A stretch of 64,000 nt of DNA, taken from the IMG/VR virus record IMGVR_UViG_3300027741_000030, positions 51,656 to 115,655 of that record. The stretch is one strand, 5' to 3'. Origin of the DNA: a virus. Each line of letters starts with the position of its first letter. The first letter of the stretch is position 1. The notes under the pieces were generated by a model that was not told the origin of the DNA, made no database searches, and was given only the letters and a program-made list of their open reading frames with translations. The translations under genes were made by a program, and so were the position numbers. Shown piece after piece: positions 1-57,093 of the stretch.

Positions 1-2605
1 ATTAGACAGCACTGGAAAAATTCCAGCAGCTCAATTAAATATTACAGAAACAATTCAAGACGTAGTTGGCTCAACGTTAGTTTCTGGAAGAGGATCAACT
101 TTTTATTATAGCGATCAAGATAATACAATAACTCTTACAGCAGGTTTAAGAGGACAAGGTTCAGTTTCCGTAACTAATGCAACAGATAATAATGATTTAA
201 TTGTTAAATTAAATCCAGTTGTTGCTGCTGATACAAAATTTACAGGACCTCTTGTTGAAGTTGGAACAGTAACAGCAACAGATGTTAATGCAACAAATGT
301 TTCAATATCTGGAAACTTAACAGTAAATGGAACAACTACAACTGTAAATTCAACAAATGTTACAATTGATGACCCAATGATCTACATTGGCGATAACAAT
401 CAATCAAATAGCCTAGATCTTGGTGTTGTAGCAGCATTTAATAATGGAACATATCAGCACTCAGGTCTTGTTCGTGATGCATCAGATGGAAAATGGAAAC
501 TTTTTTCAGGTGTAATAGCAGAACCAACAACAACAGTAGATTTTACAACGTATACAAAAGATTCTCTTGAAATTGGAGGATTGCATGCAGACTCAGCAAG
601 AATTGGAAATGTTACTAATGATGAAATTCAACATCTAGACGGAGTTAGCTCAGCAATTCAAACTCAAATTGATTCAAAGCTTTCTACAACTAGAGCAGAG
701 GCAATATATGCGCCAAAAGAATCACCTTATTTTTCTGGAACAGTAACTTTGCCAGAAGGAACAGTTACATCAGCAATGATTGCAAATGGCACAATTGTTA
801 ATGCAGATATAAATACTTATGCAGAAATTGATCAATCAAAAATTGCTAATCTTGTTACAAATCTTGCAGCAAAAGCTCCATCAGCATCTCCTACATTTAC
901 AGGCACAGTAGTTCTTCCTGCAAATACATCAATTGGAAATGTTTCATCAACAGAAATTGGTTATCTTGATGGAGTAACATCAGGAATTCAACAGCAACTT
1001 GCTCCAGTTCAAGGTTTAGTCAATTCAGTAAATACACTTGTAACTGATTTAAATTCAGCTGAAAATACAATATCTTCACTTGAATCATCTGTTACTTCAA
1101 TTAATACAACAACAAATAGCCTTCAAACACAAATTAATACAAAAGCATCAACTGCATCACTTACAGCACATGAGGCAGACACAACAAATATTCATGGCAT
1201 TGCAGATACAACTGCACTTGCTACAAAAACTTATGCAGATTCAGCAGTTTCAACTGCAGTTTCTGCACTAACAAAATCATCAGTTGGCCTTGCAAATGTT
1301 GATAACACATCAGATGCAAATAAGCCAGTATCTTCAGCAACATCAACAGCACTTGCGCTCAAAGCGTCACTTGCCTCACCAACATTTACTGGAACTGTTT
1401 CTGGTATTACAAAGTCTATGGTTGGGCTTTCAAATGTAGATAATACTGCAGATTCAGCAAAACCTGTTTCAACAGCACAGCAAACAGCACTTGATGCCAA
1501 ATTAGCGCTTGCTGGAGGAACAATGACAGGAGCACTTACACTTTCAGGTGCACCTACATCAGATCTTCATGCAGCAACTAAGTCTTACGTAGATGGAATT
1601 GCTTCTGGAATTAACTTTCATAAATCAGTTAAAATTGCAACAACAACTAACTGGTCAGCAGTATATGCAAATGGAACAAATGGTTATGGAGCAACATTAA
1701 CAGCATCCGTAAATCAATCAATTAACCCAGCAGATGGAGTAACTCTTGCTGTTGGTGATAGAATTCTTGTAAAATCACAAACAGATGCAAAGCAAAATGG
1801 TATCTATGATATAACTTCTGTGGGAGGTTCTTCTTCCAAGTGGGTTCTTACTCGTTCAGCAGATTCTGATAACAATCCAAATGGGGAAGTTGCAGGTGGA
1901 GATTTTACTTTCGTAACAGAAGGTTCTACAAATGCAAGTATTGGATTTATCTTGTCTTCACCATCAGGTGCAGCAACTCTTGGAACAGATAATATTGTTT
2001 ATACACAGTTTAACGCAGCACAAGCAGTAACTGTAGGTGCTGGTATTACTAAGTCTGGTTCAACACTTTCAATTGGAACTGGTGCCATTACATCAGATAT
2101 GATTGTAGATGGAACAATTGTTGATGCAGATATAAATGCTTCAGCAGCAATCGCACAATCTAAAATCTCAGGACTTTCAACAAGCCTAGGCTTAAAAGCT
2201 AACTTAGCAGATCCTACATTTACTGGAACAGTAACAGTTGATGCAGCAGGAGTAGCATTTACAGATGGAACTCAGACAAAAGAAGGCGTTCCATCACGGA
2301 CAACAATTATTTCAAAAACAACAGACTACACTCTTTCAAATCTTTCAGAACGTGATTCATTAATTGAAATAAATGCAGCAGGAGCTACAACATTAACAGT
2401 TCCAGCAGATTCATCAACAAACTATCCAGTAGGAACATCTTTGGATATTCTGAGAGTAGGAGCTGGAGCATTAACAGTGTCACCTGCAGCTGGCGTAACA
2501 TTAAATTACACACCAGGAAACAAGCTTCGTGCACAATGGTCATCTGCAACTCTTGTAAAGAGAGCAGCAAATACATGGGTACTTCTTGGAGACCTAACAG
2601 CTTAA
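1..2605 (+). CDS. Tail fibre-like structural protein, 5'-partial
   Basis: Frame is open from nt 2 (LDSTGKIPAAQL...), so the ATG at 377 is internal. Ala/Thr/Ser-rich, with repeats typical of phage fibres (SPTFTGTV, VGLxNVDNTxDxxKPVS, GDRILVKxQTxxxQNGIY). Confidence 0.75.
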   Translation, partial: LDSTGKIPAAQLNITETIQDVVGSTLVSGRGSTFYYSDQDNTITLTAGLRGQGSVSVTNATDNNDLIVKLNPVVAADTKFTGPLVEVGTVTATDVNATNVSISGNLTVNGTTTTVNSTNVTIDDPMIYIGDNNQSNSLDLGVVAAFNNGTYQHSGLVRDASDGKWKLFSGVIAEPTTTVDFTTYTKDSLEIGGLHADSARIGNVTNDEIQHLDGVSSAIQTQIDSKLSTTRAEAIYAPKESPYFSGTVTLPEGTVTSAMIANGTIVNADINTYAEIDQSKIANLVTNLAAKAPSASPTFTGTVVLPANTSIGNVSSTEIGYLDGVTSGIQQQLAPVQGLVNSVNTLVTDLNSAENTISSLESSVTSINTTTNSLQTQINTKASTASLTAHEADTTNIHGIADTTALATKTYADSAVSTAVSALTKSSVGLANVDNTSDANKPVSSATSTALALKASLASPTFTGTVSGITKSMVGLSNVDNTADSAKPVSTAQQTALDAKLALAGGTMTGALTLSGAPTSDLHAATKSYVDGIASGINFHKSVKIATTTNWSAVYANGTNGYGATLTASVNQSINPADGVTLAVGDRILVKSQTDAKQNGIYDITSVGGSSSKWVLTRSADSDNNPNGEVAGGDFTFVTEGSTNASIGFILSSPSGAATLGTDNIVYTQFNAAQAVTVGAGITKSGSTLSIGTGAITSDMIVDGTIVDADINASAAIAQSKISGLSTSLGLKANLADPTFTGTVTVDAAGVAFTDGTQTKEGVPSRTTIISKTTDYTLSNLSERDSLIEINAAGATTLTVPADSSTNYPVGTSLDILRVGAGALTVSPAAGVTLNYTPGNKLRAQWSSATLVKRAANTWVLLGDLTA

Positions 2606-2631: not shown

Positions 2632-3429
2632 ATGGCTAATAAGAAATTTGGTATTAAATCATCAGGACAGGATAACTTCCTAGCTCCATTTGCACCAACA
2701 ATAGGAACTGCGACAGATGTTGGTACTAACCGTCCATTTGGTAGCGGTGCAGTTACAGTAACATTTACACCTGATCCTACATACCCTGCAACATCTTTTA
2801 CAGCATCTGGTTACTGCAGTGTTCATAACATGACTCACTCAGCAACAGGATCATCTTCACCAATAACCATTACTGGTTTTGGTTCAGACATGACAACAAC
2901 AATTACTGTAACAGCTACAAATCAATATGGAACATCCCCTGCTTCAAATGCATCTAATACAGTAACAGTTACAACTGTTCCAGCAACTCCTTCGGCCCCA
3001 TCTGCAACAGCGCAGGTAAACCAAGACTCAGTATCTTGGTCAACACCTGCAAATGGAGGAAAAGCAATAACAGGTTATACATTAAGGTCAAGCGATGGCC
3101 CAACATATTCAACAGGATCAACTTCTTATACTGTTTCTGAAACTGCCAATACATCGCAAACATATTATGTAAAAGCTACAAATGCAAACGGAACTTCTCA
3201 AGAATCAGCCGCCTCAAATTCGGTTACAACTCTTGCACCGTTCTTTCCACCTTCATTCTTTGCACCACCAGGATTCTTTGCGCCACCTTCATTCTTCGCA
3301 CCTCCAGGGTTCTTTGCGCCACCTTCATTCTTCGCACCTCCAGGGTTCTTCGCACCTCCAGGGTTCTTCGCACCTCCAGGGTTCTTCGCACCTCCAGGGT
3401 TCTTCGCACCTCCAGGGTTCTGGGATTAA
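2632..3429 (+). CDS. Fibronectin type III domain protein with C-terminal (FFAPP[G/S])9 tail
   Basis: Two FN3-like segments (APTIGTAT...VTATNxYGTSPASxASN; WSTPANGGKAITGY...YYVKATNANGTS) followed by FFPPS(FFAPP[G/S])9FWD. SD-like AGGGG upstream. Confidence 0.8.
   Translation: MANKKFGIKSSGQDNFLAPFAPTIGTATDVGTNRPFGSGAVTVTFTPDPTYPATSFTASGYCSVHNMTHSATGSSSPITITGFGSDMTTTITVTATNQYGTSPASNASNTVTVTTVPATPSAPSATAQVNQDSVSWSTPANGGKAITGYTLRSSDGPTYSTGSTSYTVSETANTSQTYYVKATNANGTSQESAASNSVTTLAPFFPPSFFAPPGFFAPPSFFAPPGFFAPPSFFAPPGFFAPPGFFAPPGFFAPPGFFAPPGFWD
3241..3426 (+). repeat. Coding tandem repeat, 18-bp unit (TTCTTCGCACCTCCAGGG and variants) x9
   Basis: Nine in-frame units at 3256-3417 after a 15-bp FFPPS unit. 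Units 5-9 are identical and units 2-3 equal units 4-5. Confidence 0.95.
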
Positions 3430-3447
3430 TTAAATAAATTTTAGCTC

Positions 3448-3476
3448 TTGACAAAATAGTTTATAATTGATAAACT
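3448..3476 (+). promoter_or_regulatory. Sigma70-type promoter upstream of the oxygenase cluster
   Basis: TTGACA (3448-53), 17-nt spacer, TAAACT (3471-76) preceded by TGn. Confidence 0.7.
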
Positions 3477-3497
3477 ATAAATAAAGAAAGAGATGTT

Positions 3498-4172
3498 ATG
3501 ACACAAACATGGTCAAATAAAGAAATTTTATTTCCAGGATTATGGGTATATAAAGACGTAATTAAACCAGAATTAAATTTGGTTCCTAGACTGCTTAACC
3601 TAATTGACAGCAGTGCTGGAAGAATTAATTGGAAAGAAGCAACTGTTGGCTATAATGAAAATAGGCCAAAGTATAGGGATTGCCAAGATATAAAAATTGG
3701 TGAAATTAAAAATCCTAACAATCCATATGATTATGAATTTAATGAAATATGGAAATTAGCAAAACATGCACAGTCTGGTCCAGTCGAAGATTACTGCACA
3801 GCTCACAGCGTAAGAATGGATTTTTGGGAAGTAATGAATTTTATTTCTTATGGTCCAGGGCAACATTTTCAAGAACATGCAGATCACGGATTTTCTTACA
3901 GTGCAACCGTTTCCCTTGTTGCATATCCAAACGATGACTATGAGGGTGGAGAACTAGCTTTTCCAAAACTAGGAATTACTGTTAAACCACGAGCAGGAGA
4001 TCTATACATATTCCCTTCAAGCTATATTTATTCTCACGTGGCTCTTCCAGTTAAAAGCGGAAAAAAATATTCTATTGTAACTATGCTTGATTATAATGAC
4101 AATACGCATAACGATGAATACCGTGCATTAGTTGATAGAAGACTAGGCAATGATAAAAATAAGGGCATATAG
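3498..4172 (+). CDS. Fe(II)/2OG oxygenase, prolyl-4-hydroxylase-like
   Basis: HAD motif, YPNDDYEGGELxF, distal His (YSHVALPV), Lys at the 2OG-binding position (SGKKYSIV). Confidence 0.85.
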   Translation: MTQTWSNKEILFPGLWVYKDVIKPELNLVPRLLNLIDSSAGRINWKEATVGYNENRPKYRDCQDIKIGEIKNPNNPYDYEFNEIWKLAKHAQSGPVEDYCTAHSVRMDFWEVMNFISYGPGQHFQEHADHGFSYSATVSLVAYPNDDYEGGELAFPKLGITVKPRAGDLYIFPSSYIYSHVALPVKSGKKYSIVTMLDYNDNTHNDEYRALVDRRLGNDKNKGI

Positions 4173-4860
4173 AAAACAAAAAGATTCTGCAAACATATCA
4201 CAGCTTTCAGTTAAGAGAGACTGGATGGATGAAACATGGGAATCTCATGCATACAAATGTTTTCCAGTAAGCCTCACCAATCAGTTGGGATGGGGAATAT
4301 CATTTCCAGAGGATATAACTTTTATATGGGATGGGATTTCAGACTCTTCTTCAGATCATGTAAAAATATTATCAGGATTAAAATATGCACATTCAGGAAG
4401 AGGAAATGCCACAGTAAGCTTTAATACAGGCATTAGCTTTAAAACTGATGAAAATATAAGCCTACTAACAATGCCAGTTCCTAATTATTTAAGGGACGGC
4501 ATTCAGCCATTTACAACATTAATGAGCACTTCATTTTTTAATGGCGAATTGCCATGTGCTTTAAGAGTAACAAGACCAAATGTTGAAATAACAATTAAAG
4601 CAAATACTCCAATATTTTCAATTCTTCCAATTAACCTTGAAGAAATTCAAGATTCTGAAATAATATTTGAAGATGCAAGCCTTCTTCCAGAATTAAGTTT
4701 TGATCCAAAAGCTTATGGAGAAGAGGTATATAAAATAAATATGTCTGGAAAGTGGACAAATTTTTATAGAGATGCCGTTGATCATTTAGGAAACATTTTA
4801 GGAAAACATCAAATAAAATCAGTTAGGCTAAAGGTCCATGAGGACAAAAGCAACATATGA
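4150..4860 (+). CDS. Conserved hypothetical protein (DUF6065-like)
   Basis: KRDWMD...HAYKCFPVSLTNQLGW motif. Clear paralogue of 48870..49562. Confidence 0.6.
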   Translation: MIKIRAYRKQKDSANISQLSVKRDWMDETWESHAYKCFPVSLTNQLGWGISFPEDITFIWDGISDSSSDHVKILSGLKYAHSGRGNATVSFNTGISFKTDENISLLTMPVPNYLRDGIQPFTTLMSTSFFNGELPCALRVTRPNVEITIKANTPIFSILPINLEEIQDSEIIFEDASLLPELSFDPKAYGEEVYKINMSGKWTNFYRDAVDHLGNILGKHQIKSVRLKVHEDKSNI

Positions 4861-4887
4861 TAAAATTATATAAAAGGGGTATTAAAA

Positions 4888-5583
4888 ATGATGAGACAAA
4901 ATAATGAAATAATAGCAAACAGAGATATTGGTTTGCATGCTCCAAAATCAATAACCCCTTCAGGATTCTTTGGCAATTCATCTGACAATATAGTAGAGCT
5001 AGAAAACTTTTTAACAGAAGATGAAAGAGCAAGACTAATTGATTTTGCAATGAATAATAAAGTTTGGGATCAAACAGAAAGCCATGTTGATGAAGATGGC
5101 CTTGTCCTTTATGATGCTAACATATGGAAAGATAGAGTTTGCACATATCATTCTTTAATGAAATCAGATCCAAGTATACTAGAATTAATTAATTCCATGA
5201 TTGCAAGATTAAAAATTGAAGTAGATAAATTTTTTAATGTTGATGCAAAAGAAACTGGACCAGCAATTGTAAGGTGGCCAATAGGTGCAAGACAAGAACC
5301 ACATGCAGATAAAGAATTTCACACTGGAATAGAAAAGGGAAGACCAAATGATTTCCCCTGGTATGATCTAGCAGGCTTATTTTATTTTAATGATGATTAT
5401 GAGGGTGGAGAATTATATTTCCCACAACATGGAATTGAGTTTAAACCAAAAGCAGGAGCAGCTTATTTTTTCCCAGGAGACATGAACTATACTCATGGAG
5501 TTAGACCAGTAACCTCTGGAAATAGATTTACCTCCCCATTTTTTTGGACCATAATGAAACATTTGGATCAAGTTGAAAAATAA
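4888..5583 (+). CDS. Fe(II)/2OG oxygenase
   Basis: PHAD, YFNDDYEGGELYF, THGVRPVTSGNRFT. Confidence 0.85.
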   Translation: MMRQNNEIIANRDIGLHAPKSITPSGFFGNSSDNIVELENFLTEDERARLIDFAMNNKVWDQTESHVDEDGLVLYDANIWKDRVCTYHSLMKSDPSILELINSMIARLKIEVDKFFNVDAKETGPAIVRWPIGARQEPHADKEFHTGIEKGRPNDFPWYDLAGLFYFNDDYEGGELYFPQHGIEFKPKAGAAYFFPGDMNYTHGVRPVTSGNRFTSPFFWTIMKHLDQVEK

Positions 5584-6208
5584 TAATTGTTTAATTGATG
5601 ACAATTTTTTGCTTGATGAAGAGATAGATTATTTACAGCAAATAATGTACTCTTATGAAAACACCTTTAATTGGATATATACTCCCACAGGAAACATGGA
5701 CGCTGGAGATTATCGAGCAGTTCACACTAAAAATACAAACAATTCAATGCAATTTATTCACACAGCAAAATTAGGAAAAATAGAATATTCAAATTTTTCA
5801 AAAGATGCTGAAAAAGTTTTATATAAGTTTTGTAAAAAAAACAATATAGAGGTTATAGATGTTTTTAGAATTAAAGCTAATTTAATTCCAAAACAAAATG
5901 ATTATTTGCAAACAAATATGCCACACGTAGATAATGTTATTGATATTATTCCTGAACATACAGAGGGAGAGCATTATGTTTTTTTGTATTATGTAAACGA
6001 TTCAGACGGCCCAACAGTAATCTTTAATGAAAAATATAATGGAGAAAAAAAAGATATCTTTTCTATAAAACAAAAAATTAACCCAGTAGCTGGAAGAGGC
6101 ATATTGTTTAATGCAGACCAATACCACGCCTCATCTATACCTAAAAAAACAAACTTAAGATGTGTAATAAACATTAATTTAATAGGAAAAAAAATAAATG
6201 ATAATTAA
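5573..6208 (+). CDS. Fe(II)/2OG oxygenase (phage type)
   Basis: RIKANL...PHVD...YYVNDSDGPT...YHASS...RCVININ. Confidence 0.75.
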   Translation: MKNNNCLIDDNFLLDEEIDYLQQIMYSYENTFNWIYTPTGNMDAGDYRAVHTKNTNNSMQFIHTAKLGKIEYSNFSKDAEKVLYKFCKKNNIEVIDVFRIKANLIPKQNDYLQTNMPHVDNVIDIIPEHTEGEHYVFLYYVNDSDGPTVIFNEKYNGEKKDIFSIKQKINPVAGRGILFNADQYHASSIPKKTNLRCVININLIGKKINDN

Positions 6209-6638
6209 AAATTTAACCAAAAAAGAAATAGAGGCTTCCAGAGTCCTATTAGATCTGACCCTAGGCATAGAGCATTCAGGTAAATCTTTTTTTAGTCATT
6301 TATACAACACATTTTATATATTAAAAAAAATGAATTTAGACGAGGATACATGCCTGGCAGGAATGTATCATTCGATATATGGAACAGAGTATTTTAAGAT
6401 AGACAAACAGGTGCAAAAAGATGAAGTTATTAAAACAATTGGACAAAAAGCAAATAAATTGGTAGAATATTTTTGTACAGAAAACAGAAATGATTTTATT
6501 TTAAACGGTAAAATAGAAGATCAAGATAGGCTTTCTTTATTGTATATTTTATATGCAAACGAAATAGAGCAAAGAGGCGAAAAAAACATTTTGTTTTTAA
6601 ATCAAATAAAAGAAGAAATAGGAAAGAAATTGCTATGA
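6198..6638 (+). CDS. DUF6817-like (HD-related helical) protein
   Basis: HSGKSFFSHL...CLAGMYHSIYGTEYF motif. Confidence 0.55.
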   Translation: MIIKNLTKKEIEASRVLLDLTLGIEHSGKSFFSHLYNTFYILKKMNLDEDTCLAGMYHSIYGTEYFKIDKQVQKDEVIKTIGQKANKLVEYFCTENRNDFILNGKIEDQDRLSLLYILYANEIEQRGEKNILFLNQIKEEIGKKLL

Positions 6639-7462
6639 CAAACTTAGAGTATATTGAGCTATATCCAAGAATAGATGTTTATAGAAATGTTTTAAAAGAT
6701 CCACAGGCTTTATATCAAACTATGAAAAAATCTGAGGAAACTTCAAATGGAGAATACCTTTTAAAAACTTGGGATGCATGGGCAAAATTTGGAACCTACA
6801 CTCAAAAGAAAGACTTGGCTGAAGTTTCAGAAGATACAAAAACTAAAAATATGTTTATTGAAGAAAAAGATTTTGTAGATCAGGTTCAAGCAGCTTATGA
6901 TTTAGTTTTGTTGGATTACATAAAAAGACACAATGTTGAGTTAAAGCCAGGTTGGCATTTTAGCGGCTGCTCTTTTTCAAAATATAAAGATGGAGTAGAC
7001 ACTCTAAAAAATAAAATGACAATGCAGTATCACACTGATTTTATTATTGCAGAAAGAGAAATGCCTGGACCTAAGTTTCAATTAACATGTACAATGTACA
7101 TAAATGATGATTATCAAGGCGGAGACATAGAATTTTTTATTGATGGAAAGCTGATTAATCATAAGCCACAAGCAGGAGACATTCTTGTCTTCCCATCAGA
7201 CGAACCATATTTTCATGGAGTTAAAACAATATACAATGGCCAAAAGTTTTTTGTAAGAAATTTTGTAATGTACCCTTACGATGGAAGCCCTGAATGGCTA
7301 GCAAATCAAAAACAATTTGGTGCAGTAAATTGGATGAAAAAAGAATTTATTAGATTAGAAGAAGATACAAAAAGAAACATGAAATACGTTGAAGATGGTG
7401 TAGAAATTGCAGTAGAGATTGCACACGCAAACCATAATGTAGAGTCAAAGGAAAGTATGTAA
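6635..7462 (+). CDS. Fe(II)/2OG oxygenase
   Basis: YHTD, YINDDYQGGDIEF, YFHGVK...GQKFFVR. Confidence 0.85.
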   Translation: MTNLEYIELYPRIDVYRNVLKDPQALYQTMKKSEETSNGEYLLKTWDAWAKFGTYTQKKDLAEVSEDTKTKNMFIEEKDFVDQVQAAYDLVLLDYIKRHNVELKPGWHFSGCSFSKYKDGVDTLKNKMTMQYHTDFIIAEREMPGPKFQLTCTMYINDDYQGGDIEFFIDGKLINHKPQAGDILVFPSDEPYFHGVKTIYNGQKFFVRNFVMYPYDGSPEWLANQKQFGAVNWMKKEFIRLEEDTKRNMKYVEDGVEIAVEIAHANHNVESKESM

Positions 7463-8220
7463 TGGAACTAATAAAAATAGCAGAAGACATTCATCTATAT
7501 AAAAATTTTATAGAAGATGAAGAACTTGCTAAAGTAACATCTTTATTAAAAAAATTACAAAATACCGACAAAGACTATTGGAAGTCTATATCTTTTTATG
7601 AGTCATATTCCGCCAGATACCCTTATGATGGAGAACCAATTTTAGAAGAATTTGGTTTGCCTGCAACTTATTTTTCTGATCTAAGAAATAGGTTTAAAGA
7701 AGCAGCCGCACATGTTGCTAATCAGCCAGTTGAAAAAATGTCTCAAATAAGTTTTCATATTCAAAGATGGCTTCCAGGTTCTTTTGCACCAAAGCATTCT
7801 GACAACAGTGATAATGAAGGAAACATGGGAGCCTTTACAAGAAGCAGATACGCTGGATTTTTATACTTAAATGATGACTTTGAAGGAGGCACCTTAAAGT
7901 TTGAAGCACAACACGGAGAGCTGCCATTAGAAATAATTCCAGAAGCTGGATCTTTTTTAATATTCCACGGCGGTCACAAAAACATGCATGAGGTTACTGT
8001 AGTAAAAAAGAGCCCAAGATACACAATAGGTTCTTTTTGGGACGATAGAGAAGAATCAGATTATCCACAAGACGTAAGAGATGCTTGGGCTGAAGAGCTT
8101 AAAAAAGTTAGAGCAATTCAAGCTGAAGAAGCGGTAGAGTGGAAAGAAGTTAGAGAAAAGGGATTACGTCTAACACCAGATGGCAAGTCTATACCAGCAT
8201 CTGAAGTGGAAGATTTATGA
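7462..8220 (+). CDS. Fe(II)/2OG oxygenase
   Basis: KHSD, YLNDDFEGGTL, MHEV...RYTIGSFW. Confidence 0.85.
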   Translation: MELIKIAEDIHLYKNFIEDEELAKVTSLLKKLQNTDKDYWKSISFYESYSARYPYDGEPILEEFGLPATYFSDLRNRFKEAAAHVANQPVEKMSQISFHIQRWLPGSFAPKHSDNSDNEGNMGAFTRSRYAGFLYLNDDFEGGTLKFEAQHGELPLEIIPEAGSFLIFHGGHKNMHEVTVVKKSPRYTIGSFWDDREESDYPQDVRDAWAEELKKVRAIQAEEAVEWKEVREKGLRLTPDGKSIPASEVEDL

Positions 8221-8882
8221 TAGACGAAAAATCAAATAAATTTGATCCAAATGACATGTATCACATGTTTATACCAAATGTTTTAGAGAACAATATTTGG
8301 TATTATAAAAATGTTGTAAGCTATCCAAAAGAGCTATTAGATTTTATTAATGAAGTTGATAATGATGCTAGAAGCCACGGTAAAATAACAAAGTGGTTCC
8401 CTTGGACTGCTAGCAATAATGGCTCTTTAATATACGGAGATAACAAAAATGTTCTACCTTCAAATATGAAAGATGTCACAGACGCTGGAAGACTAGATCA
8501 AAAAATACTATATATATCAAATAGCATAAAGATGGCTTTTCAAATGTGTCTTGATAATTACTTTGCTTCAAGAAATATTGATTCGTCAAATTATGTTTTG
8601 CCAATGAGTGAGATTCCATTAAGAAGGTGGGGAGTGGGTCCTGGAATGGGTCCTCATTGTGATAACTATGACGGGCATACAAATCTTGCTTTTTCTATGA
8701 TTCTATATTTAAACAACAACTACGAAGGCGGGGAAATCGAGTTTCCAAATCAGGGAGTGTCTTTAAAGCCAGATGAGGGCAGCCTAATTATATTCCCAAG
8801 CAGTGAGCCATACCTTCACAAAGTAAATGAGATTAAATCGGGAGATAGGTACACATCACATCTTTCAGTATATACAAGATAG
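8217..8882 (+). CDS. Fe(II)/2OG oxygenase
   Basis: PHCD, YLNNNYEGGEIEF, LHKVNEIKSGDRY. Confidence 0.85.
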   Translation: MIDEKSNKFDPNDMYHMFIPNVLENNIWYYKNVVSYPKELLDFINEVDNDARSHGKITKWFPWTASNNGSLIYGDNKNVLPSNMKDVTDAGRLDQKILYISNSIKMAFQMCLDNYFASRNIDSSNYVLPMSEIPLRRWGVGPGMGPHCDNYDGHTNLAFSMILYLNNNYEGGEIEFPNQGVSLKPDEGSLIIFPSSEPYLHKVNEIKSGDRYTSHLSVYTR

Positions 8883-8898: not shown

Positions 8899-10095
8899 AT
8901 GAGCACAGTTCCTAATCAACACGGATTGCATTTTCCAAACTACACGGATTCTCCAGACGTGCCTAAAGACCTGTCGCTACTAGCTAAAGATATTGCAGAT
9001 CTTATTGATGCTAACCCTGGACCGCAAGGTGAAGTTGGCCCAGCAAACTCTCTTGATGTAATTGCAACAAACACAATTACAGCAGGCCTAAATGCATCTG
9101 TAACAATTTCAGGAACAGCTCCATCACAACATTTAACGTTTAACATTCCCAAAGGACAAGATGGTGTGTTAGGTGGTCCAGGACCATCAAATGTTTTAAC
9201 AATAGGAACAGTAACTTCGGGAGCAACAGCAAGCGCATCAATTACTGGAACATCTCCATCTCAAATTTTAAATTTAATTTTACCGATAGGTCCCACAGGA
9301 TCAACTGGCGCAACAGGAGCGCAAGGAGCAAAAGGAGATGCAGCAGCAACTATAGCCGTAAACTCCACTACAACAGGAGCTGCAGGAACAAGTGCATCTG
9401 TAACAAATTCTGGAACATCAAGCAATGTTTTATTAAACTTTACAATTCCAAGAGGAGCAACTGGAGCAACTGGAGCAACTGGAGCGCAGGGTCCTACTGG
9501 AGTTGATGGAGCAACTCCAAGCATAGATCCAATATCATTAAGAATTGGTCTTATGTCACCAAATACATCCTCAACTGGAGTTAACTCAAACTGGTATCCA
9601 TTTTCTACAAACTTATATTCTTTAGGAAAAGATACATCTGATGGTGGACCAGCAAGATATTGGAAAGATATTTTTTCTAATGGAACAATAAGAGCAGCAT
9701 CTGTTATTGCAACAGGAAACATGTACATAAATACATCTACAGTAGTTACATCAGATGAAAATTTAAAAAATACAATAGCTCCATCTAATCTAGGTCTTAA
9801 TTTTATTAACTTGTTAAATCCAGTAAGCTACAAGTTTAATGTTGGCGGAATAAATTATTCAGTAGATGAAGATGGCAATCAAGTTGAGACTGCAGTTCCA
9901 GGTAATAGAACTCATTATGGCCTTATAGCTCAGGAAGTTAAAGAATCTCTAGACAGTTTAAATATTGAAGATTTTGGCGGATGGGTTCAAAAAGAAGATA
10001 AAACTCAAGCTTTGAGATATGAAGAATTTATAGCGCCATTAATTAAAGCAGTACAAGAACTTTCAGCGAGAGTACAAGCTTTAGAAGAAAAGTAG
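8899..10095 (+). CDS. Collagen-like tail fibre with C-terminal intramolecular chaperone (peptidase S74-like)
   Basis: G-X-Y runs (GATGATGATGAQGPTG); SDENLKxxI...GLIAQEV...LRYEEFIAPLIKAVQEL. Extended -10 TGGTATAAT at 8884. Confidence 0.8.
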   Translation: MSTVPNQHGLHFPNYTDSPDVPKDLSLLAKDIADLIDANPGPQGEVGPANSLDVIATNTITAGLNASVTISGTAPSQHLTFNIPKGQDGVLGGPGPSNVLTIGTVTSGATASASITGTSPSQILNLILPIGPTGSTGATGAQGAKGDAAATIAVNSTTTGAAGTSASVTNSGTSSNVLLNFTIPRGATGATGATGAQGPTGVDGATPSIDPISLRIGLMSPNTSSTGVNSNWYPFSTNLYSLGKDTSDGGPARYWKDIFSNGTIRAASVIATGNMYINTSTVVTSDENLKNTIAPSNLGLNFINLLNPVSYKFNVGGINYSVDEDGNQVETAVPGNRTHYGLIAQEVKESLDSLNIEDFGGWVQKEDKTQALRYEEFIAPLIKAVQELSARVQALEEK

Positions 10096-10101
10096 GTAAA
10101 G

Positions 10102-11907
10102 ATGTCATATAAGAATGCGGTCTTAAATGATCATCCAAATTCATTTTACCTTTTAGACGAAGTAAGATCTGGAACAGTAGGATCATACTCTGGAATTATT
10201 TCTCAGTTTGCAACATATCAAGATTTAAAAGATAGCGGTATTACATATTCTGCATTAAGCGGATTACCAATTATCGACTATTCAGGAAACATAAATAATG
10301 GATATGCAATAAGCACATCAAGCAAAGAACTTATGCCATTAGTGCCAGGAAGCATAAGAGGCACACAAGTTCTTGAGCAAACAATAGTTGCATTTAGTCC
10401 AAAAGGAATAGCAACAAAATATTTTAACGATAATTCTTTTAGCATAGAGGCCTGGGCAGTTTTGCCAAGCTATGATGTAGACGCTACAATTGTCGCAGAC
10501 CCAGACCTGGGAATTGGAATATTTTATGAAAACGGAAACATAGTATTTAAAGTAGGAGATATACAGACTAGCTATACCGTATCAAATTCAAGATCAAAAT
10601 ATATTGTTGCATTATTTGAAAACAGATCTATATCCCTTTATATTGATGGTGTAATTGTTGATAAGCAACCAACCAACAATTATAAATTTACAAATGAATA
10701 TATTAATTTTATAAGCAGCACATCAGAGGAACAGCTGGTTATAGACTCTGTAGCGTTTTATAAATTTGCCCTTTCTCAATCTCAAATAAACAATCATTAT
10801 AATGAAGGCATAAAAGAAATAAAGTACTCTCAAATAGTAAATCTTGATAACGGATATTTGTTTAGCATGAATGTAGAGCCAATTAAACCAAAATTTAAAT
10901 ACTCTTATCCAGAATCAAAATCATGGAGAGAGATTTATGGAGATAATGTGTCTATAGCAGATGACGGATCATACCTTTATTTTAAAAAAACTTTAGACTC
11001 TGCAACCTCAGAATTTTCTTTTATAGATTCTTTTATTGTTCCAAATTATTTAAACTTAACAACATCTCAAATTTATTGGGAATATGATGTTGACGGAATA
11101 TCAGTAGAAGTCAGCACCAACGGATCTAACTGGCAAGAATGCCAAAATGGAAACCCATTGCCATATTTTAATAAAAATGAAAATCTGTTTTCAGATTTGC
11201 TTTATTTGAGAGTTACAATTTCATCAGCTGATACAACAAAATATTTGCCAATATTAAAAAGCTTAGAAATTTTGTTCTTTAGTTCAAAAAATTTTTACAG
11301 CGATAACTCAGGCTACTATTTATCTTCAGACTATGACTATTCACTTCCTAAAAAAAATAATAGAATTTTAGCATACGATAAAAATAATGGTTTACGCATG
11401 TACAGCGGCCATGGATTTTATTTAAATAATGTGCCCTCAATTAAAACAGTTGAAATGATATTTACTCCAAGATATTCAGAAAACGTTCTTGTTTCTGCTA
11501 CGTCAAAAATATACGAGTGGAACCAGGCTGGAACTATAACAAAGTCAGGAATTGCCTCAATATATGTAAATGGTATAGATCAAACAAACAGTACAAATAT
11601 ATGGGATTTTATATCTCCAGATTTGCCACATCATGTGGTTATAACATTTTCTTCTCAGGCCACAAATCTTAAATTTAATCAAAATCAATCAGATTCCAAG
11701 TCTGGTTTAGGACACATGTATAACAATCTTGCTATATACCCAGACGAGCTTGGGGAATATAATACATTAAATCATTATACGCTTTATACAAATAGAATAG
11801 TAAATTCAATTAACGACACCTCATTAACAATATCAGAAAGCACATCAGGTAACGATTCTACGTCTGTCAGATTGATTTTAATACAGCCAGAAGCCATAAG
11901 TATATAA
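10102..11907 (+). CDS. LamG/concanavalin-like domain virion protein
   Basis: FSIEAW...ISLYIDG...IDSVAFYKFALSQSQINNHY pattern; located among structural genes. Confidence 0.6.
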   Translation: MSYKNAVLNDHPNSFYLLDEVRSGTVGSYSGIISQFATYQDLKDSGITYSALSGLPIIDYSGNINNGYAISTSSKELMPLVPGSIRGTQVLEQTIVAFSPKGIATKYFNDNSFSIEAWAVLPSYDVDATIVADPDLGIGIFYENGNIVFKVGDIQTSYTVSNSRSKYIVALFENRSISLYIDGVIVDKQPTNNYKFTNEYINFISSTSEEQLVIDSVAFYKFALSQSQINNHYNEGIKEIKYSQIVNLDNGYLFSMNVEPIKPKFKYSYPESKSWREIYGDNVSIADDGSYLYFKKTLDSATSEFSFIDSFIVPNYLNLTTSQIYWEYDVDGISVEVSTNGSNWQECQNGNPLPYFNKNENLFSDLLYLRVTISSADTTKYLPILKSLEILFFSSKNFYSDNSGYYLSSDYDYSLPKKNNRILAYDKNNGLRMYSGHGFYLNNVPSIKTVEMIFTPRYSENVLVSATSKIYEWNQAGTITKSGIASIYVNGIDQTNSTNIWDFISPDLPHHVVITFSSQATNLKFNQNQSDSKSGLGHMYNNLAIYPDELGEYNTLNHYTLYTNRIVNSINDTSLTISESTSGNDSTSVRLILIQPEAISI

Positions 11908-11969
11908 ATTTGTCACAAGCTCAGACAAAATCTGGACTTTAGCTACAACTAATGGTATGATTATGGTCT

Positions 11970-12308
11970 ATGGATATCTTAAACAAAAATACTAAAATTA
12001 TTGAAGAAACCACCCTAGGGATATATGTGTGGGAAATGCCTGACGGCAGATGGATTGGAGACGACGATGGCAACTTTCTTTCGATCACGTCCAAAAAAGG
12101 TAATAGATCCAGAATCGATGCTTTGGCTAGAGAAGTTCGCTCGTTTGGTATATATGAGGGCAATCCCAAGTTCCTTTCAGGGCGTAGAAAAATTGACGAC
12201 GAAGAGTTTGAGCATCAAAACGAAAGACTCAAGTGGGGACTCACACCAGATCCTTTAGATATTGGTGTTTACAAAGACGCAATGCTTAGGGATGGTAAGG
12301 TTCAATGA
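11970..12308 (+). CDS. Hypothetical protein coupled to the portal gene
   Basis: ATGA overlap with portal; extended -10 TGGTATGAT at about 11953. Confidence 0.6.
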   Translation: MDILNKNTKIIEETTLGIYVWEMPDGRWIGDDDGNFLSITSKKGNRSRIDALAREVRSFGIYEGNPKFLSGRRKIDDEEFEHQNERLKWGLTPDPLDIGVYKDAMLRDGKVQ

Positions 12309-13891
12309 GAGCTGAATATATTGAAGATGATGAAACCTCATCAAATACTATAGATATTTCAAACAGTGCAGATTGGTTTCATTTTCAAAAATCTGAAGAG
12401 CATGACGACCCATTTAAAATTAGTCTAGATGAAATTAAAAAGCTTCGTGGCCTAGGCACCAACTTTAAAAGAAAAATAAACCGTGACTTCTCAAAAGCCT
12501 TTGTTGGAAAAGAAGGGGTAGCAACACAACAAAATTTATTGCAGCAGGCAATCAGCGGATATGCATTATTTGATTTAGTTGAGCCAACCTACAATCTTGA
12601 ATATCTTTCAAAAATATATGAAATATCAACATATAACTATGCAGCAATTAATGCAAAGGTTTCAAATATTGTTGGATTAGGATATACGTTTGCAGAAACA
12701 CCTAAAGCAAAAGATGCAATGGATCAGATTACTGATGACAAACAGCTTGAAAGAGCTCGTACAAAAATAAATAGAATTAAGAATGGCTTAGATCAATGGC
12801 TTGATGATTGTAACGAAGAAGAGTCATTTACAGAAACCCTTATAAAGGCTTACACAGACCTTGAGGCCACAGGAAACGGGTACATTGAGATAGGACGTAC
12901 AACGGGTGGAGATATAGGCTACATCGGTCATATACCAGCTAAAACAATGCGTGTGCGTAGATTCCGTGACGGCTTTATTCAATTGCTTTATGGCAAGGCT
13001 GTATTCTTCCGTAACTTTGGAGACCTAGAAACGCCTAGCCCGATTGCTGGCCAAGAAGACAGACCAAATGAGATTATTCATTTAAAGAAATATACACCAA
13101 TGAATAACTATTATGGTGTTCCAGATATTATTGCAGCACAGCAAGCTTTAGCAGGAAATGAATTTGCAGGAAGATATAACCTTGATTACTTTGAAAACAA
13201 AGCGGTTCCAAGATATATTATTACAGTTAAGGGAGCAAAGCTTTCTCCAGAGTCAGAAAGAAAATTACTTGAGTTTTTTCAGGTCGGCTTAAAAGGAAAG
13301 AATCACAGATCTCTTTACATTCCACTTCCAGCGGATACACCAGACTCAAAGACTGAATTTAAGATGGAGCCAATTGAGGCGGGAGAGCAAGAGTCCTCAT
13401 TTAACATCTATCGTAAAACAAATAGAGATGAAATCCTTTTAGCTCATCGTGTTCCTATTAATAAAATTGGAACTCCTGAAGGTGTTAATTTAGCTGTAGC
13501 AAGAGATGCGGACAAGACATTTAAAGAGCAGGTTTGTCGTCCAGCACAAGATAGACTAGAAAAGAAATTAAACTATTTAATTGCAGAAAAAACAGATGTT
13601 GTCGAATTAAAGTTTAATGAGCTAAGCCTTACAGACGAAATAACTCAAAGCCAGATAGATGAGATTTATTTAAGAATGCAGGTTATTACTCCTAACGAAG
13701 TAAGAATTAGAAAAAATATGATTCCTAGAGATGGTGGAGATGAAGTCGTTGAATTAAAACCTCAGCAGGCGGCAGACCAACAGGCCAAATCTACTGGAAA
13801 TAAAACTAGAGACCAACAAAGAGCTTCAAATGCCCCAGATAAAAATGGGGAAGGTAGAAATGCCAAGGGAGATGGTCCAAAAGTCAAATAA
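12305..13891 (+). CDS. Portal protein
   Basis: DLEATGNGYIE, EIIHLKKYTPMNNYYGVP, YFENKAVP, RDEILLAHRVP, ITPNEVR. Confidence 0.9.
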   Translation: MRAEYIEDDETSSNTIDISNSADWFHFQKSEEHDDPFKISLDEIKKLRGLGTNFKRKINRDFSKAFVGKEGVATQQNLLQQAISGYALFDLVEPTYNLEYLSKIYEISTYNYAAINAKVSNIVGLGYTFAETPKAKDAMDQITDDKQLERARTKINRIKNGLDQWLDDCNEEESFTETLIKAYTDLEATGNGYIEIGRTTGGDIGYIGHIPAKTMRVRRFRDGFIQLLYGKAVFFRNFGDLETPSPIAGQEDRPNEIIHLKKYTPMNNYYGVPDIIAAQQALAGNEFAGRYNLDYFENKAVPRYIITVKGAKLSPESERKLLEFFQVGLKGKNHRSLYIPLPADTPDSKTEFKMEPIEAGEQESSFNIYRKTNRDEILLAHRVPINKIGTPEGVNLAVARDADKTFKEQVCRPAQDRLEKKLNYLIAEKTDVVELKFNELSLTDEITQSQIDEIYLRMQVITPNEVRIRKNMIPRDGGDEVVELKPQQAADQQAKSTGNKTRDQQRASNAPDKNGEGRNAKGDGPKVK

Positions 13892-21214: not shown

Positions 21215-24200
21215 ATGGCAGATAATTTAATCACGACCAATATTACCGCCAATGCAGACTTTACGAGTTTAAAAACTCAATTAGCTGCAGTTACTGCCCA
21301 ACTCATAAAACTTCAAGAAACAACTGCTGGAACAAACGCAAAACTTGCAAATCAAATTGCAGTAATGAACAAGTCTTTTGCAGAGACTATGCGTTCTACT
21401 GGACAGTTTTCCTCACATTTTGTTTCTTTAACTTCAGACGTAGAAAAGTTTGGAAAGAATTTAGATCGTGGCCGTCTTAAATTAAATGATTACTATAATA
21501 CTTGGAACGGCCACACTAAAAAAACAAGCAATTTAATTAAAGATCTTGCAAAACAGCAAGTAATGCTTGAACAATCGATTATTCAACCATTAGGCAAAAA
21601 TGCACAAGGTCTAATGCAATACAATATAATGGTTGCAAAAGGTCTTGATGAAATAAAAAACAAAACAGCTTTAGCTAGACAAGAAGCTGCAATTATGAAT
21701 AAGGTCATGCAAGACGGAGCTGGCCAATTAATTAACTGGGGTAAAAATACACAGTGGGCAGGCCGTCAGCTTACTGTAGGACTTACAGTGCCTCTTGTTG
21801 CATTTGGCGCAGCAGCACAGAAAGCATTTAGAGAAGCAGATGCAGAGCTTGTAAGATTAACAAAAGTTTATGGCGGATTAGCAGCAACTTCATCTCAAGA
21901 TTTAGCGCAAGTTAGAAAAGATGTAAGCGCAACTGCAAAAGAAATTGCTAGCTCATATGGAGTTGCTTATAAAGATACAATATCTTTAGCTGCAGATTTA
22001 GCAGCAACAGGTAAACAAGGAAATGATTTACTTCAAGCAACTCAACAAACAACAAGGCTTGCAGTACTTGGTGAAGTAGACAGACAAGATGCTATGAAAG
22101 CAACTCTTGCTATTCAAAATGCATTTAAACAAAATACAGATCAGCTAACAGAATCAATTGATTTTCTTAACGCAGTTGAAAACCAAACATCTACAAGCCT
22201 TGCAGATTTAACAGAGGCAATTCCAAAAGCTGGTCCAGTAATTAAATCTTTAGGCGGAGATGTAAAAGATTTAGCTTTGTATCTTACAGCAATGAAAGAA
22301 GGAGGAGTTAATGCTGCAGAAGGTGCAAATGCAATTAAATCAGCAATGGCTTCTCTTATTAATCCAACAAAGGTTGCAACAGAGATGTTTGCTTCTTTTG
22401 GAATTGATCTTAGGGGAATAGTAACAAAAGACGCTGGAGATTTAACACAAACAATTTTAGATTTGCAATCAGCATTAGATGGGTTAAATCCATTAGATAA
22501 ATCAAGAGCAATTGAACAACTTTTTGGCAAATTTCAATTTGCTAGAATGTCAGCGTTATTTGAAAACTTAGGAAAATCTGGATCACAAACTCTTCAAGTT
22601 ATGGATCTTATGAAAGCAAGTGCATCAGACCTTGCTAATATATCTTCACGAGAATTAAAGTTGATGACAGAATCAGCATCAGGACAGTTTAAGCGAGCCT
22701 GGGCTTCTGTTCAGGCAGACCTAGCTTCTACTGGAGAACAATTCTTAAGAGTAAGTACAAAAGTATTAAATGTTGTAGATAAAATAATAAAGTTTTTTGA
22801 AAACTTACCAAAACCAATTAAAACATTTTTAAATGTTTTGGGAGGAATTACAGCAGTTACTGGACCAATAATCATGCTTACTGGTGTTTTAGGAAATTTC
22901 CTTGGATACATAATTAAAGGTATATTTCATTTAAAGCAATTAGGAAAAGGTGGGCAAGGGTTTAAACTTCTTACACCTGAAATTATGGCAGCGGAAGCTG
23001 CAGCAAAAGGACTTGCAACATCATTTTATAGTGATTCAGAAGCAACAATTGTTTTATCTAATGCTGTAAATACACTTGCAGAATCATTTGCTAATCTTGA
23101 AATGAAAGCAAATGCTGCAAAAGTTGCTGTTCAACCAGCAGTTACAACTGTTGCAGGAAATGCTGTAGCACCAGGAGTTTTTGGACAACGAGTAGTTGAT
23201 AAAAATAATCCATTAATTGGTGCACCTTATTCAAGAGATATGTCACATTTGATTCCAACTCAGATGCCACAGGCGGGAACAATTTTTGGAACAGTGCCAG
23301 GAGCTGGACCAGTAAACGTTAGAATTGGAAAAAATCCTCAAGCCTACATGGATCAGGATATGCCAAAGATTCCTGGGGTCACTTCAGTAAATAATGTTTC
23401 CACTGGAATTGTTGCTTCAGAAGCTGCAAAATGGCATGCAATGACTGCAGCAATTGCAATGCAATCAGAAGCAGAAATTAAATTACTTAAAACAGAAGTT
23501 ATGGCTACAGGAACTGTAACTGAAAGTTTATCTCAATCTTACCAAGCACTTCTCCCACAATTTTCTGAAATCACACAATTAGCAGCAGCTGAAACAAAAG
23601 CAATTGTTGCAGATTTACAAGCAAGTAAAATAACTGTTGATGAAGCTAGAGCAAAAGTTATTCAAATGAATGCAACTGTTGAAGCAATGCTTGCAGAAAC
23701 TGCAGCAGCCACAGCAGCTGGAATGGGAAGAACTGTTAATTTAACAACCGTTCCACTTACATCACAGCCAGTAGTTGATCCAGCTACAGGAAAATCAAAC
23801 ATGAAAGAAATGTTCCATAAAGGAACAACAAAAGAAATTGCAGATAGAATTGCAAGAGCTTTAGGCGGAGTTAGAACTTCAGGTGCTGGATATAACATTC
23901 ATACAACAAAGCCACAGCAATTAAACTCTGGAGGAAGAGTATATAATCCATCAAGAGACGGTAACATAGTCCCTGGAGACACATCAATTAACTATGATAA
24001 TACTCCAGCAGTTTTGCAAGAGGGCGGATATGTATTAAATCAAGGCGCTTCAAAAAATAATCCAGACTTAGTTAGTCTTGCAAAAAATTCCCGCAACTCT
24101 GGAGGAAAAATTGTACCAGCTGTAGTAACTCCAGGCGAAACTTATTTCCCTCCAGAAGTTGCTGAGACAATAATGCCTACACTTGAAAAAGCTAACAAAG

Positions 24201-47584: not shown

Positions 47585-47762
47585 TGAGTTTTTGAATAAA
47601 GAAACAAAGGTAGCAAACGATTCTACATTTGAAAACCTTCCAGGAACAAGACCTTGCTCCAAATGTGAGATTGATGTAGATGGTGGGCTGTGGGATCCTA
47701 AGAATTTAATAATGAAATGGACGTGTCCGTCTGGACACGAGACTGTACACAGGTTTGGATAA
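47571..47762 (+). CDS. Zinc-ribbon protein
   Basis: CSKC...WTCPSGH; GGAG SD before ATG 47571. Confidence 0.6.
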   Translation: MPNLNEFLNKETKVANDSTFENLPGTRPCSKCEIDVDGGLWDPKNLIMKWTCPSGHETVHRFG

Positions 47763-48570
47763 TATTAAAATGGATAAGCTTGTTGTTGCCCCTCAAATTG
47801 TTGTTTATAAAAACATTTTTAAAAACTCCAAGGAACTTATAGAAAATCTTGATATAGATAGAGAAGACTCTCTGTTTGATGGGTGGAGACAGTGGTATCA
47901 GCAAGGTTTTAGAAAAGATGTGGTCTTTGATTTAAATGAAAATTACCCAGAGACACAGGAGTCTTTATACTTAAAAGAAGCTTGTGAAATTGTAAACTTT
48001 ATTAGACAAGATTATTTTAATGATTTTGAAAAAGATAAAGGTGTTTGGCCTACGTTTATTAATAATTGGGATTCTTTAAAAAAAACACAAGACATATTTT
48101 ATTTAGACTACTTCAGATATGTAAAAGAACAAAATCATTATTCTGATGAAAAACTATTAATGGAATACCATGTAGATGAATTTCCAGTAGTGAACGAAGC
48201 TAAGACAAGAAGACATGTTGTAACTATTAACTTTTATTTAAATAACGAATACACTGGGGGAGAGATATCTGCATATGACGCTATCTCAAATAAGATCTAT
48301 ACATATAAGCCACAACCAGGTGATGCGGTTGTAATGCCATCAACCGAGCCTTTCTATCATGGAGTAAAGGGATTTAAAGATGCAGACAGGTATTTTTTAA
48401 GATCATTTATAGATTATAGAATGGACTCTGAAGAAGAATGGGTTGCTAAATATAAGTTAAATCAATCTGATAGACACAAAGAAGTTCAGCAACACGAAGA
48501 CGATTATGTTTCAAAAGACTTGCAGATGATAACAGTGTCTTCAGCAGAAGAAGTTATAGTTGGTAATTAA
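47755..48570 (+). CDS. Fe(II)/2OG oxygenase
   Basis: YHVD, YLNNEYTGGEI, FYHGVK...RYFLR; resembles 6635..7462. Confidence 0.82.
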   Translation: MDNIKMDKLVVAPQIVVYKNIFKNSKELIENLDIDREDSLFDGWRQWYQQGFRKDVVFDLNENYPETQESLYLKEACEIVNFIRQDYFNDFEKDKGVWPTFINNWDSLKKTQDIFYLDYFRYVKEQNHYSDEKLLMEYHVDEFPVVNEAKTRRHVVTINFYLNNEYTGGEISAYDAISNKIYTYKPQPGDAVVMPSTEPFYHGVKGFKDADRYFLRSFIDYRMDSEEEWVAKYKLNQSDRHKEVQQHEDDYVSKDLQMITVSSAEEVIVGN

Positions 48571-57092: not shown

Positions 57093-57093
57093 C

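Follow-up and report, generated by a model that had tools for sequence, protein, structure and literature searches.

A Phe-Pro repeat protein encoded beside six prolyl-hydroxylase-like oxygenases: a candidate system for hydroxylating a phage appendage

We describe here a block of genes in a 64,000-nucleotide stretch of viral DNA (the window), which is the right-hand 64 kb (positions 51,656 to 115,655) of the 115,655-bp IMG/VR virus record IMGVR_UViG_3300027741_000030, rated complete by CheckV. The block encodes a protein that ends in a Phe-Pro tandem repeat and six 2-oxoglutarate (2OG)/Fe(II) oxygenases of the prolyl-4-hydroxylase (P4H) type, and the question pursued here is whether the repeat is a substrate of the enzymes. 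The portal of this genome is 56–58% identical to the portals of large Streptomyces siphophages of the Stanwilliamsviridae, and the related contigs come from lake metagenomes; the source is probably a freshwater phage infecting Actinobacteria. At the locus, a tail-fibre gene is followed after a gap of 26 nt by the repeat-protein gene, and 68 nt behind the latter begin eight tightly packed or overlapping genes for the six oxygenases, a DUF6065 protein and a small DUF6817/HD_4-like protein (Table 1). A second fibre gene follows, and after it genes for a lectin-like 601-aa protein, a 112-aa protein and the portal. An earlier note on this DNA, made from the letters alone, had read the locus in the same way, as a repeat protein and six oxygenases with intact iron-binding triads next to DUF6065-like and DUF6817-like genes, all between two fibre genes, and sequence, alignment and profile matches bear out that anatomy throughout.

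Table 1. Features of the repeat-protein and oxygenase block, in window coordinates
Feature	Position	Strand	Evidence
Tail-fibre gene, 3′ part (of 1002 aa); gene start 403 nt before the window	1..2605	+	
FN3-type protein with C-terminal repeat, 265 aa; proposed substrate and virion fibre appendage	2632..3429	+	
Tandem repeat, 18-nt unit, 9.2 copies	3256..3421	+	Tandem Repeats Finder
Promoter-like site TTGACA-17-TAAACT with TG, in the block's only real intergenic gap	3448..3476	+	consensus match only
Oxygenase 1, prolyl-4-hydroxylase-like 2OG/Fe(II), Lys at 2OG site	3498..4172	+	PF13640 6.6e-13
DUF6065 protein; 23-nt overlap with oxygenase 1	4150..4860	+	PF19541 5e-29
Oxygenase 2, Arg type	4888..5583	+	PF13640 2.3e-8
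Oxygenase 3, Arg type, divergent	5573..6208	+	PF13640 24 bits (below cut-off); phrog_274 2.5e-30
DUF6817/HD_4-like small protein	6198..6638	+	profile search
Oxygenase 4, Lys type	6635..7462	+	PF13640 3.5e-8
Oxygenase 5, Arg type	7462..8220	+	PF13640 2.5e-10
Oxygenase 6, Arg type	8217..8882	+	PF13640 3.3e-12
Second fibre, short collagen-like Gly-X-Y runs and Peptidase_S74 chaperone domain	8899..10095	+	profile search

The repeat protein ends in FFPPS(FFAPP[G/S])9FWD, behind a part whose match to fn3 is weak (residues 120–196, E 1.7e-4, 22 bits, below the 25-bit cut-off). At the DNA level, the last five units of the array are identical, which points to a recent expansion, and the differences among the earlier units are confined to third codon positions of the repeat-protein frame. 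The two other reading frames are likewise open; since the changes fall only at these third positions, it is the repeat-protein frame that is under selection. Pro-Pro-Gly occurs in seven units, as the earlier note had counted, and Pro-Pro-Ser in three; the repeat contains neither Lys nor Arg. From these seven units the note had argued for collagen-type hydroxylation at X-Pro-Gly, an argument that does not survive comparison with relatives, in which Gly-free FFPPFFP tails are accompanied by even more oxygenases. Reading the repeat as collagen triplets was likewise rejected: instead of Gly at every third residue, Gly or Ser stands at every sixth, with Ala at the other triplet start. The FFPPFFP tails of relatives lack any small residue, and only relatives with Pro-poor (GAF)n tails fit the collagen triplet, with a weak Collagen match.

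The same genome encodes a second Pro-Pro-tailed protein about 3.8 kb upstream of the window (G000:C1:44769-47843, equivalent to L034:8770-11844). This Cys-rich protein of 1024 aa has (PT)n linkers and end units of the form FFxPP[D/N/T], and its gene directly follows another fibre gene, one with an Mtd_N domain. Its relatives in loci L016 and L019 carry a Hint domain after the repeat.

Among the six enzymes, five pass the PF13640 cut-off and all carry the HxD...H iron-binding triad in the alignment. About ten positions past the distal His stands the basic residue that binds the C5 carboxylate of 2OG, which is Lys in collagen-type enzymes and Arg in PHD/PKHD-type enzymes; as the earlier note had it, oxygenases 1 and 4 have Lys at this position and the other four Arg. 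K190 of oxygenase 1 is invariant in 32 orthologues. Of all members of the cluster, oxygenase 2 is conserved most strongly from locus to locus, and oxygenase 3 occurs among related loci in L009–L011 and L014 only. Oxygenase 4 has a weak PDB match to prolyl 3-hydroxylase 1 and a 50%-identical homologue in an unrelated 205-kb phage (see below), and the best PDB match of oxygenase 6 is a PKHD-type hydroxylase.

For oxygenase 1, a sequence search of the PDB returned weak matches, to the P4H of B. anthracis (1e-5) and that of the chlorovirus PBCV-1 (5c5t, E 0.034). An AlphaFold2 (AF2) model built from the 32 orthologues reached a pLDDT of 90, and the top matches listed for it by Foldseek were protein prolyl hydroxylases almost throughout, with one exception at rank 44. 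They included PBCV-1 vCPH (5c5t), P. putida PPHD/EF-Tu (4iw3) and the Chlamydomonas P4H with a (Ser-Pro)5 peptide (3gze), with TM-scores of 0.65–0.72 on the target at 13–20% identity, and further the B. anthracis P4H, PHD2 and human C-P4H-II. To judge from this model, oxygenase 1 most likely acts on peptidyl proline; the fold does not tell on which protein.

The gene for the DUF6065 protein overlaps that of oxygenase 1, and a similar pair occurs elsewhere in the genome: a DUF6065 paralogue (48870-49562, 37% identical) lies on the plus strand in the replication region, a long way from the fibre genes and near another oxygenase (47755-48570), with a 105-aa ORF between the two. This tight pairing, found twice, suggests that DUF6065 is a partner of the oxygenases. 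A predicted complex of oxygenase 1 and DUF6065 scored 0.00 in a run made without controls, and counts neither way. The AF2 model of the DUF6065 protein (pLDDT 95) shows a β-barrel like that of the trimeric dUTPases over residues 1–170, followed by a helical C-terminus; it matches dUTPases with a Foldseek E of 1e-4 and a VIA-align Z of 10.5, with 119 of 120 residues aligned, at an identity of 8–17%. Its conserved columns, judged by eye only, bore no resemblance to dUTPase motifs.

This fold raises the alternative that the block acts on nucleotides or small molecules, with DUF6065 and the HD-like protein handling a nucleotide oxidised by the oxygenases. The HD_4/DUF6817 gene in the block would fit such a role, as would the distant DUF6065-like gene that adjoins a class II ribonucleotide reductase in relatives with Pro-poor tails. 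We nevertheless consider a nucleotide or small-molecule target very improbable: oxygenase 1 matches protein prolyl hydroxylases and not AlkB or TET/JBP, the identity of DUF6065 to dUTPases is low with no dUTPase motif seen among its conserved columns, and dUTPase folds have been reused as non-enzymatic scaffolds, as the herpesvirus entries in the structural comparison illustrate. The HD-like gene, moreover, is found in only 4 of about 80 loci (the window and L009–L011) and is an accessory insertion outside the conserved core.

Two further observations concern the distribution of DUF6065. A narrow-alignment search gave 8 contigs from metagenome-assembled genomes (MAGs), all of them pieces of the same phage group that had been binned with bacteria, so that none provides an independent cellular context; PF13640 and PF19541 (DUF6065) both match in the genome of Caulobacter vibrioides. 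Outside the window, a family of about 240 aa with a faint likeness to DUF6065 (Pfam 18 bits; for example L015:1798-2565, L020:13584-14327 and L052:12272-12985) lies beside DUF6065 in 37 loci of the Pro-Pro type and directly behind the repeat-Hint gene in the Pro-poor clade.

Next, we compared the block with its relatives. About 150 related loci were compared overall. Two scans of IMG/VR yielded about 100 syntenic ones, which share the order fibre, repeat protein, variable block, (collagen-like fibre), 601-aa protein, 112-aa protein and portal. Co-occurrence was counted in the 80 loci with at least 6 kb downstream, a tail with at least seven PP dipeptides being taken as Pro-Pro-rich. All 64 loci with Pro-Pro-rich tails contained 4–10 oxygenases and 1–2 DUF6065 genes, whereas the 16 loci with Pro-poor tails (FSPFGVFG, (GAF)n or FGFTPFG) contained 0–2 oxygenases and no DUF6065 in every case, and carried instead the distant DUF6065-like gene, the class II ribonucleotide reductase and a 1250-aa protein. 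The contrast extends to whole genomes, with 8–12 PF13640 genes in each of five complete Pro-Pro-type genomes against 0–2 in five Pro-poor-type records of 59–87 kb. Where a locus or genome has a second repeat-bearing protein, its repeat is always of the same type as the first. The co-occurrence of repeat tails and the oxygenase/DUF6065 cluster across phage metagenomes, which the earlier note had suggested as a check, thus holds in 80 of 80 loci.

The number of enzymes also follows the tail in a graded way, by measures that ignore kinship: tails with a higher proportion of proline tend to be accompanied by more oxygenases (Spearman rho 0.60 for 75 loci and 0.46 for 50 distinct Pro-Pro-type tails), and loci with FFPP-only tails have on average 7.0 enzymes versus 5.8 for FFxPPx tails. 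In relatives, additional tailoring families occupy the same spot, namely an Asp/Asn beta-hydroxylase and a Sulfotransfer_2 protein, which are of protein- or glycan-tailoring kinds.

A degenerate DNA pattern for FFxPPxFFxPPxFF was used to find further contigs, eight of which had another architecture. In these, a protein of 130–150 aa with a non-FN3 N-terminus and an (FFxPPx)n tail is encoded directly behind a fibre gene, and the neighbouring genes are an Oxy2-like gene, read from the opposite strand, an Oxy1-like gene (43–46% identity), a DUF6065 gene (30–34%) and a further oxygenase gene, with Pfam matches checked. One of the contigs is a record of 204,904 bp, rated 97% complete, with a GC content of 37%. 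When 99 ORFs of the window genome were compared with this record by blastp, 28 matched, mostly fibre parts, DNA polymerase, ribonucleotide reductase and oxygenases, and no homologue of the window portal, protease, capsid, tape measure or terminase was found among them. By these sequence comparisons, a phage with an unrelated virion backbone again combines Pro-Pro tail, P4H-like enzymes and DUF6065, with the tail on another carrier domain and the genes in another order. The association of the three has survived rearrangement and deep divergence, even if the cassette moved. Within the 204,904-bp record (G003; likewise L179), the region at about 96–106 kb holds a fibre gene, a gene for a 135-aa FFxPP-tailed protein with a Cys-rich end motif, three adjacent oxygenase genes and DUF6065.

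The enzymes might instead modify another virion protein of the block, for which the lectin-like 601-aa protein and the two fibres, upstream and collagen-like, come into question. The collagen-like fibre has Gly-X-Y runs, and collagen-like proteins are classic P4H substrates; it also accompanies the cluster into the 205-kb phage. However, of the 41 Pro-Pro-type loci that extend to the portal, 21 lack it and still have oxygenases; it was therefore set aside as the substrate, about half of the cluster-bearing loci being without it, and is a possible additional but not a required one. The prolines in its Gly-X-Y runs, furthermore, stand mostly at X and not at Y. Two of the same 41 loci lack the 601-aa protein. 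As for the upstream fibre, one of its type stands before the repeat protein in every related locus and also in the unrelated 205-kb phage. It occurs in the enzyme-less Pro-poor clade as well as in the Pro-Pro clade, so that it does not predict the enzymes. We regard a target among these other virion proteins as improbable.

What kind of protein carries the repeat is indicated by its family. More than 680 homologues (50–60% identity) combine a conserved FN3 part with diverse Phe-rich low-complexity tails, among them FFxPPx, FFPPFFP, FSPFGVFG, (GAF)n and FTPYSF. In most of the long homologues, a profile search detects behind the repeat a domain of 160–200 aa of the Hint/bacterial intein-like (BIL) type (PDB 2lwy 3.6e-9, mini-inteins; Pfam Intein_splicing and Hint_2). 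One residue past the position where Hint would cleave, the window protein comes to its end: it reads ..GFW|D-stop where relatives have ..GFW|GC.. or ..GFW|C.., and a 77%-identical relative, that of L012 at 9986-11281, continues with ..GFWGC and a Hint domain of 166 aa. A C-terminal Hint domain starting with Cys or Ser is present in most relatives and absent from the window protein. DNA comparison with L012 shows that the window lacks 1.74 kb holding the Hint domain, a Sulfotransfer_2 gene and an Asp/Asn beta-hydroxylase gene; the last two lie in L012 at 11281-12538, between the Hint-capped repeat protein and oxygenase 1, and are found in about ten related loci. As these sequences read, the window gene is a variant that has lost its Hint cap. 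Whether Hint is active in the Pro-Pro-type relatives is uncertain, since the block-B His seems, in sequences read by eye, to be Gln in many of them.

Other caps occur as well. In L134:9634-10284 (minus strand), (FFxPPx)n is directly followed not by Hint but by a Peptidase_S74 chaperone (6.5e-10), a domain that occurs on trimeric phage fibres and removes itself after folding, and some other homologues end in small Cys-rich knobs. The repeat thus joins an anchor domain to a cap that is small or can be removed, which argues for a stalk, part of a fibre, and not for a peptide precursor. In the sister clade, L052:9995-11323 and its counterparts in L064, L075 and L097 have long perfect (Gly-Ala-Phe)n tails, formally collagen-type triplets with a weak Pfam Collagen match; the Hint-like domain of these homologues starts with Ser or has no nucleophile, in place of Cys, and the phages have almost no oxygenases.

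The family also bears on a second suggestion of the earlier note, that the repeat is the multi-core precursor of a ribosomally synthesised and post-translationally modified peptide (RiPP). In that case, the oxygenases would tailor the units, which would then be excised to give small peptides. A repeated core beside several tailoring enzymes does resemble such clusters, and some relatives have small Cys-rich end motifs. Yet no precursor leader, protease, cyclase or exporter was recognised in the window block, for which reason this reading was rejected there, and none appeared in the about 150 loci, whose recurrent families were partly scanned against Pfam. The repeat units have no cleavage sites, the carrier is an FN3 or fibre-associated domain encoded behind a fibre gene, and what comes after the repeat in relatives is a domain of fibre maturation, Hint or Peptidase_S74. 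We give the RiPP reading almost no credence.

From the observed anatomy of the block, the fold of enzyme 1 and the comparative pattern, we infer a mechanism that extends to virion location, substrate, modified residue and effect. An FN3-type anchor, made right after the tail fibre, would form a thin appendage of the virion, in which the C-terminal Phe-Phe-x-Pro-Pro-x tract would be a stiff stalk of the polyproline type. Late in infection, the neighbouring 2OG/Fe(II) oxygenases would hydroxylate prolines of this tract, and possibly other residues; the similar tract of the upstream 1024-aa fibre-associated protein may be hydroxylated likewise. The paralogues, two of the Lys and four of the Arg type, could serve different positions or chemistries. 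Hydroxylation might then make this strongly hydrophobic repeat more stable and more soluble, in the way known from collagen and from the hydroxyproline-rich wall proteins of plants and algae. In relatives, the tract would be matured by a self-removing C-terminal cap, Hint/bacterial-intein-like or Peptidase_S74, which the window gene appears to have lost. In our estimate, there is about an even chance that some or all of the clustered oxygenases act on the repeat. More tentatively, and with some doubt, these phages of lake Actinobacteria may tailor their particles in the style of an extracellular matrix, with a Phe-Pro segment hydroxylated by dedicated paralogues with a dUTPase-fold DUF6065 partner, in relatives also Asp/Asn-hydroxylated or sulfated, and then matured through a Hint or S74 cap. 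The earlier note's picture of the repeat as a substrate on a virion-surface tail has gained comparative support from the 80 loci and structural support from the fold of enzyme 1; its hydroxylation remains a proposal.

Several points weigh against this proposal. On the tree of the 112-aa protein and portal, the two tail types form the two sides of one fully supported branch, a single change, so the 80-of-80 association is weaker than the raw count suggests and represents one deep event within this phage family. The tree of the FN3 domain needs four changes, of which only two are forced by well-supported branches; and since the repeat physically adjoins the cluster, recombination within the gene could yield that picture without a functional tie. 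The two trees offer 1–4 independent pairs, where a sign test needs six or more. The 205-kb phage shares the fibre gene, which makes possible a transfer of the whole cassette, fibre included, with the enzymes as passengers. The window genome has at least 10 PF13640 matches, and about 14 oxygenase-like ORFs by blastp; about eight PF13640-type genes lie outside the block, one of them with the second DUF6065, so that a link to the fibres cannot hold for every such enzyme. Second among the fold matches of enzyme 1 is a hydroxylase of EF-Tu, a target of host type, and the predicted dUTPase-like fold of DUF6065, together with the HD-like gene, hints at nucleotides. On its chemical side, the proposal draws on fold and comparison, and a caution comes from PBCV-1, in whose virions no hydroxyproline was found (PMC7019647).

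Many of the same points would be expected if the oxygenases were accessory genes with other targets, such as EF-Tu, ribosomal proteins or metabolites, that had piled up in a hypervariable spot between fibre and portal, their association with the tail being a product of linkage and shared ancestry. The single change on the portal tree, the scattered PF13640 genes and the EF-Tu-acting P. putida PPHD all speak for this explanation, as do the highly variable content of the region and the nearest homologues in isolates, 2OG oxygenases of cyanomyophages with no tie to fibres (PMC3037559). Against it, a phage whose head and tail are unrelated has the trio on a different carrier and with changed gene order and strand, the cluster is lost in none of the 64 sampled Pro-Pro-type loci although its content ranges from 4 to 10 genes, and genomes of the Pro-poor sister clade contain few of these enzymes anywhere. 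We consider accessory genes of this kind unlikely, if the most serious of the competing explanations. As far as sequences can tell, the evidence within the family amounts to one deep split, after which both features have been kept without exception despite long divergence and heavy turnover of the block, and to some mobility of the FN3 domain relative to tail type.

Elsewhere in the region, the stretch with the promoter-like site is conserved in L009 and partly in L012; promoter-like sites are no more numerous here than in shuffled sequence. The window further holds an ORF of 2497 aa, of tape-measure size (21215-28708), and three tRNA genes (Met-CAT, Arg-TCT and Lys-TTT) at 57019-57166 and 58284-58357, in the early or replication region.

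Few unexplained genes are as common in aquatic phages as those for 2OG-Fe(II) oxygenases, which are routinely classed as metabolic. With a concrete candidate substrate that can be synthesised, encoded beside the enzymes on two unrelated phage backbones, a question of long standing becomes directly testable. If the proposal is true, the block would be the first system known to hydroxylate a bacteriophage particle post-translationally and would define a new, uncharged Phe-Pro fibre material. It would also provide a first substrate for the orphan 2OG-Fe(II) oxygenases of phages, those of cyanophages included, and so turn presumed auxiliary metabolic genes into virion-modifying enzymes.

Searches of isolated phage genomes with blastn and tblastn, in a collection from which close records may be missing, gave no match for the block, the repeat protein or DUF6065, and a literature search found no paper on DUF6065, the Phe-Pro repeat or hydroxyproline in phage particles, and nothing on this system under phage P4H with collagen-like fibres or phage-tail Hint domains. 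Among isolated phages, the nearest relatives of the enzymes are the orphan 2OG-Fe(II) oxygenases of T4-like cyanophages, 27–40% identical and present in several copies per genome, whose function is still unexplained (PMC3037559). Unlike the enzymes of the window, these have been discussed as genes of DNA repair or 2OG metabolism, and in the isolated phages searched we found neither a Phe-Pro repeat protein nor a DUF6065 homologue. The repeat proteins of relatives resemble BIL/Hint and Peptidase_S74 fibre proteins in that the repeat precedes a self-cleaving C-terminal domain of this kind, whereas the window gene has neither domain and stops at the Hint cut position.

With human C-P4H, Chlamydomonas Cr-P4H-1 (3gze/2jig) and the B. 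anthracis P4H (3itq), the enzymes share the double-stranded β-helix (DSBH) fold, the HxD...H triad and, in enzymes 1 and 4, the Lys. The collagen, plant or algal and B. anthracis P4Hs act on polyproline-II-type repeats of structural extracellular proteins. They differ from the window enzymes in sequence (13–20% identity), and the latter have no PDI subunit or peptide-substrate-binding domain; unlike collagen, the window repeat shows Gly at intervals of six residues only, and the repeats of many relatives contain no Gly.

The nearest known parallel is the P4H of the chlorovirus PBCV-1 with that virus's own Pro-rich repeats, and the earlier note's statement that no system like this had been described was therefore too strong: the PBCV-1 enzyme hydroxylates the virus's own Pro-rich repeat peptides in vitro (PMC3634087, PMC7019647). 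As here, a small collagen-type P4H (A085R, 5c5t) with Lys at the 2OG site is encoded together with virus proteins that bear short Pro-rich tandem repeats, such as (Pro-Ala-Pro-Lys)n, and 5c5t is the best fold match of oxygenase 1, the sequence similarity being marginal. PBCV-1 is, however, a eukaryotic virus with one such enzyme, whereas the system described here belongs to a bacteriophage with six clustered paralogues and DUF6065, in which the repeat is Phe-rich and uncharged, the enzyme genes adjoin that of the repeat protein, and relatives add Hint or S74 caps.

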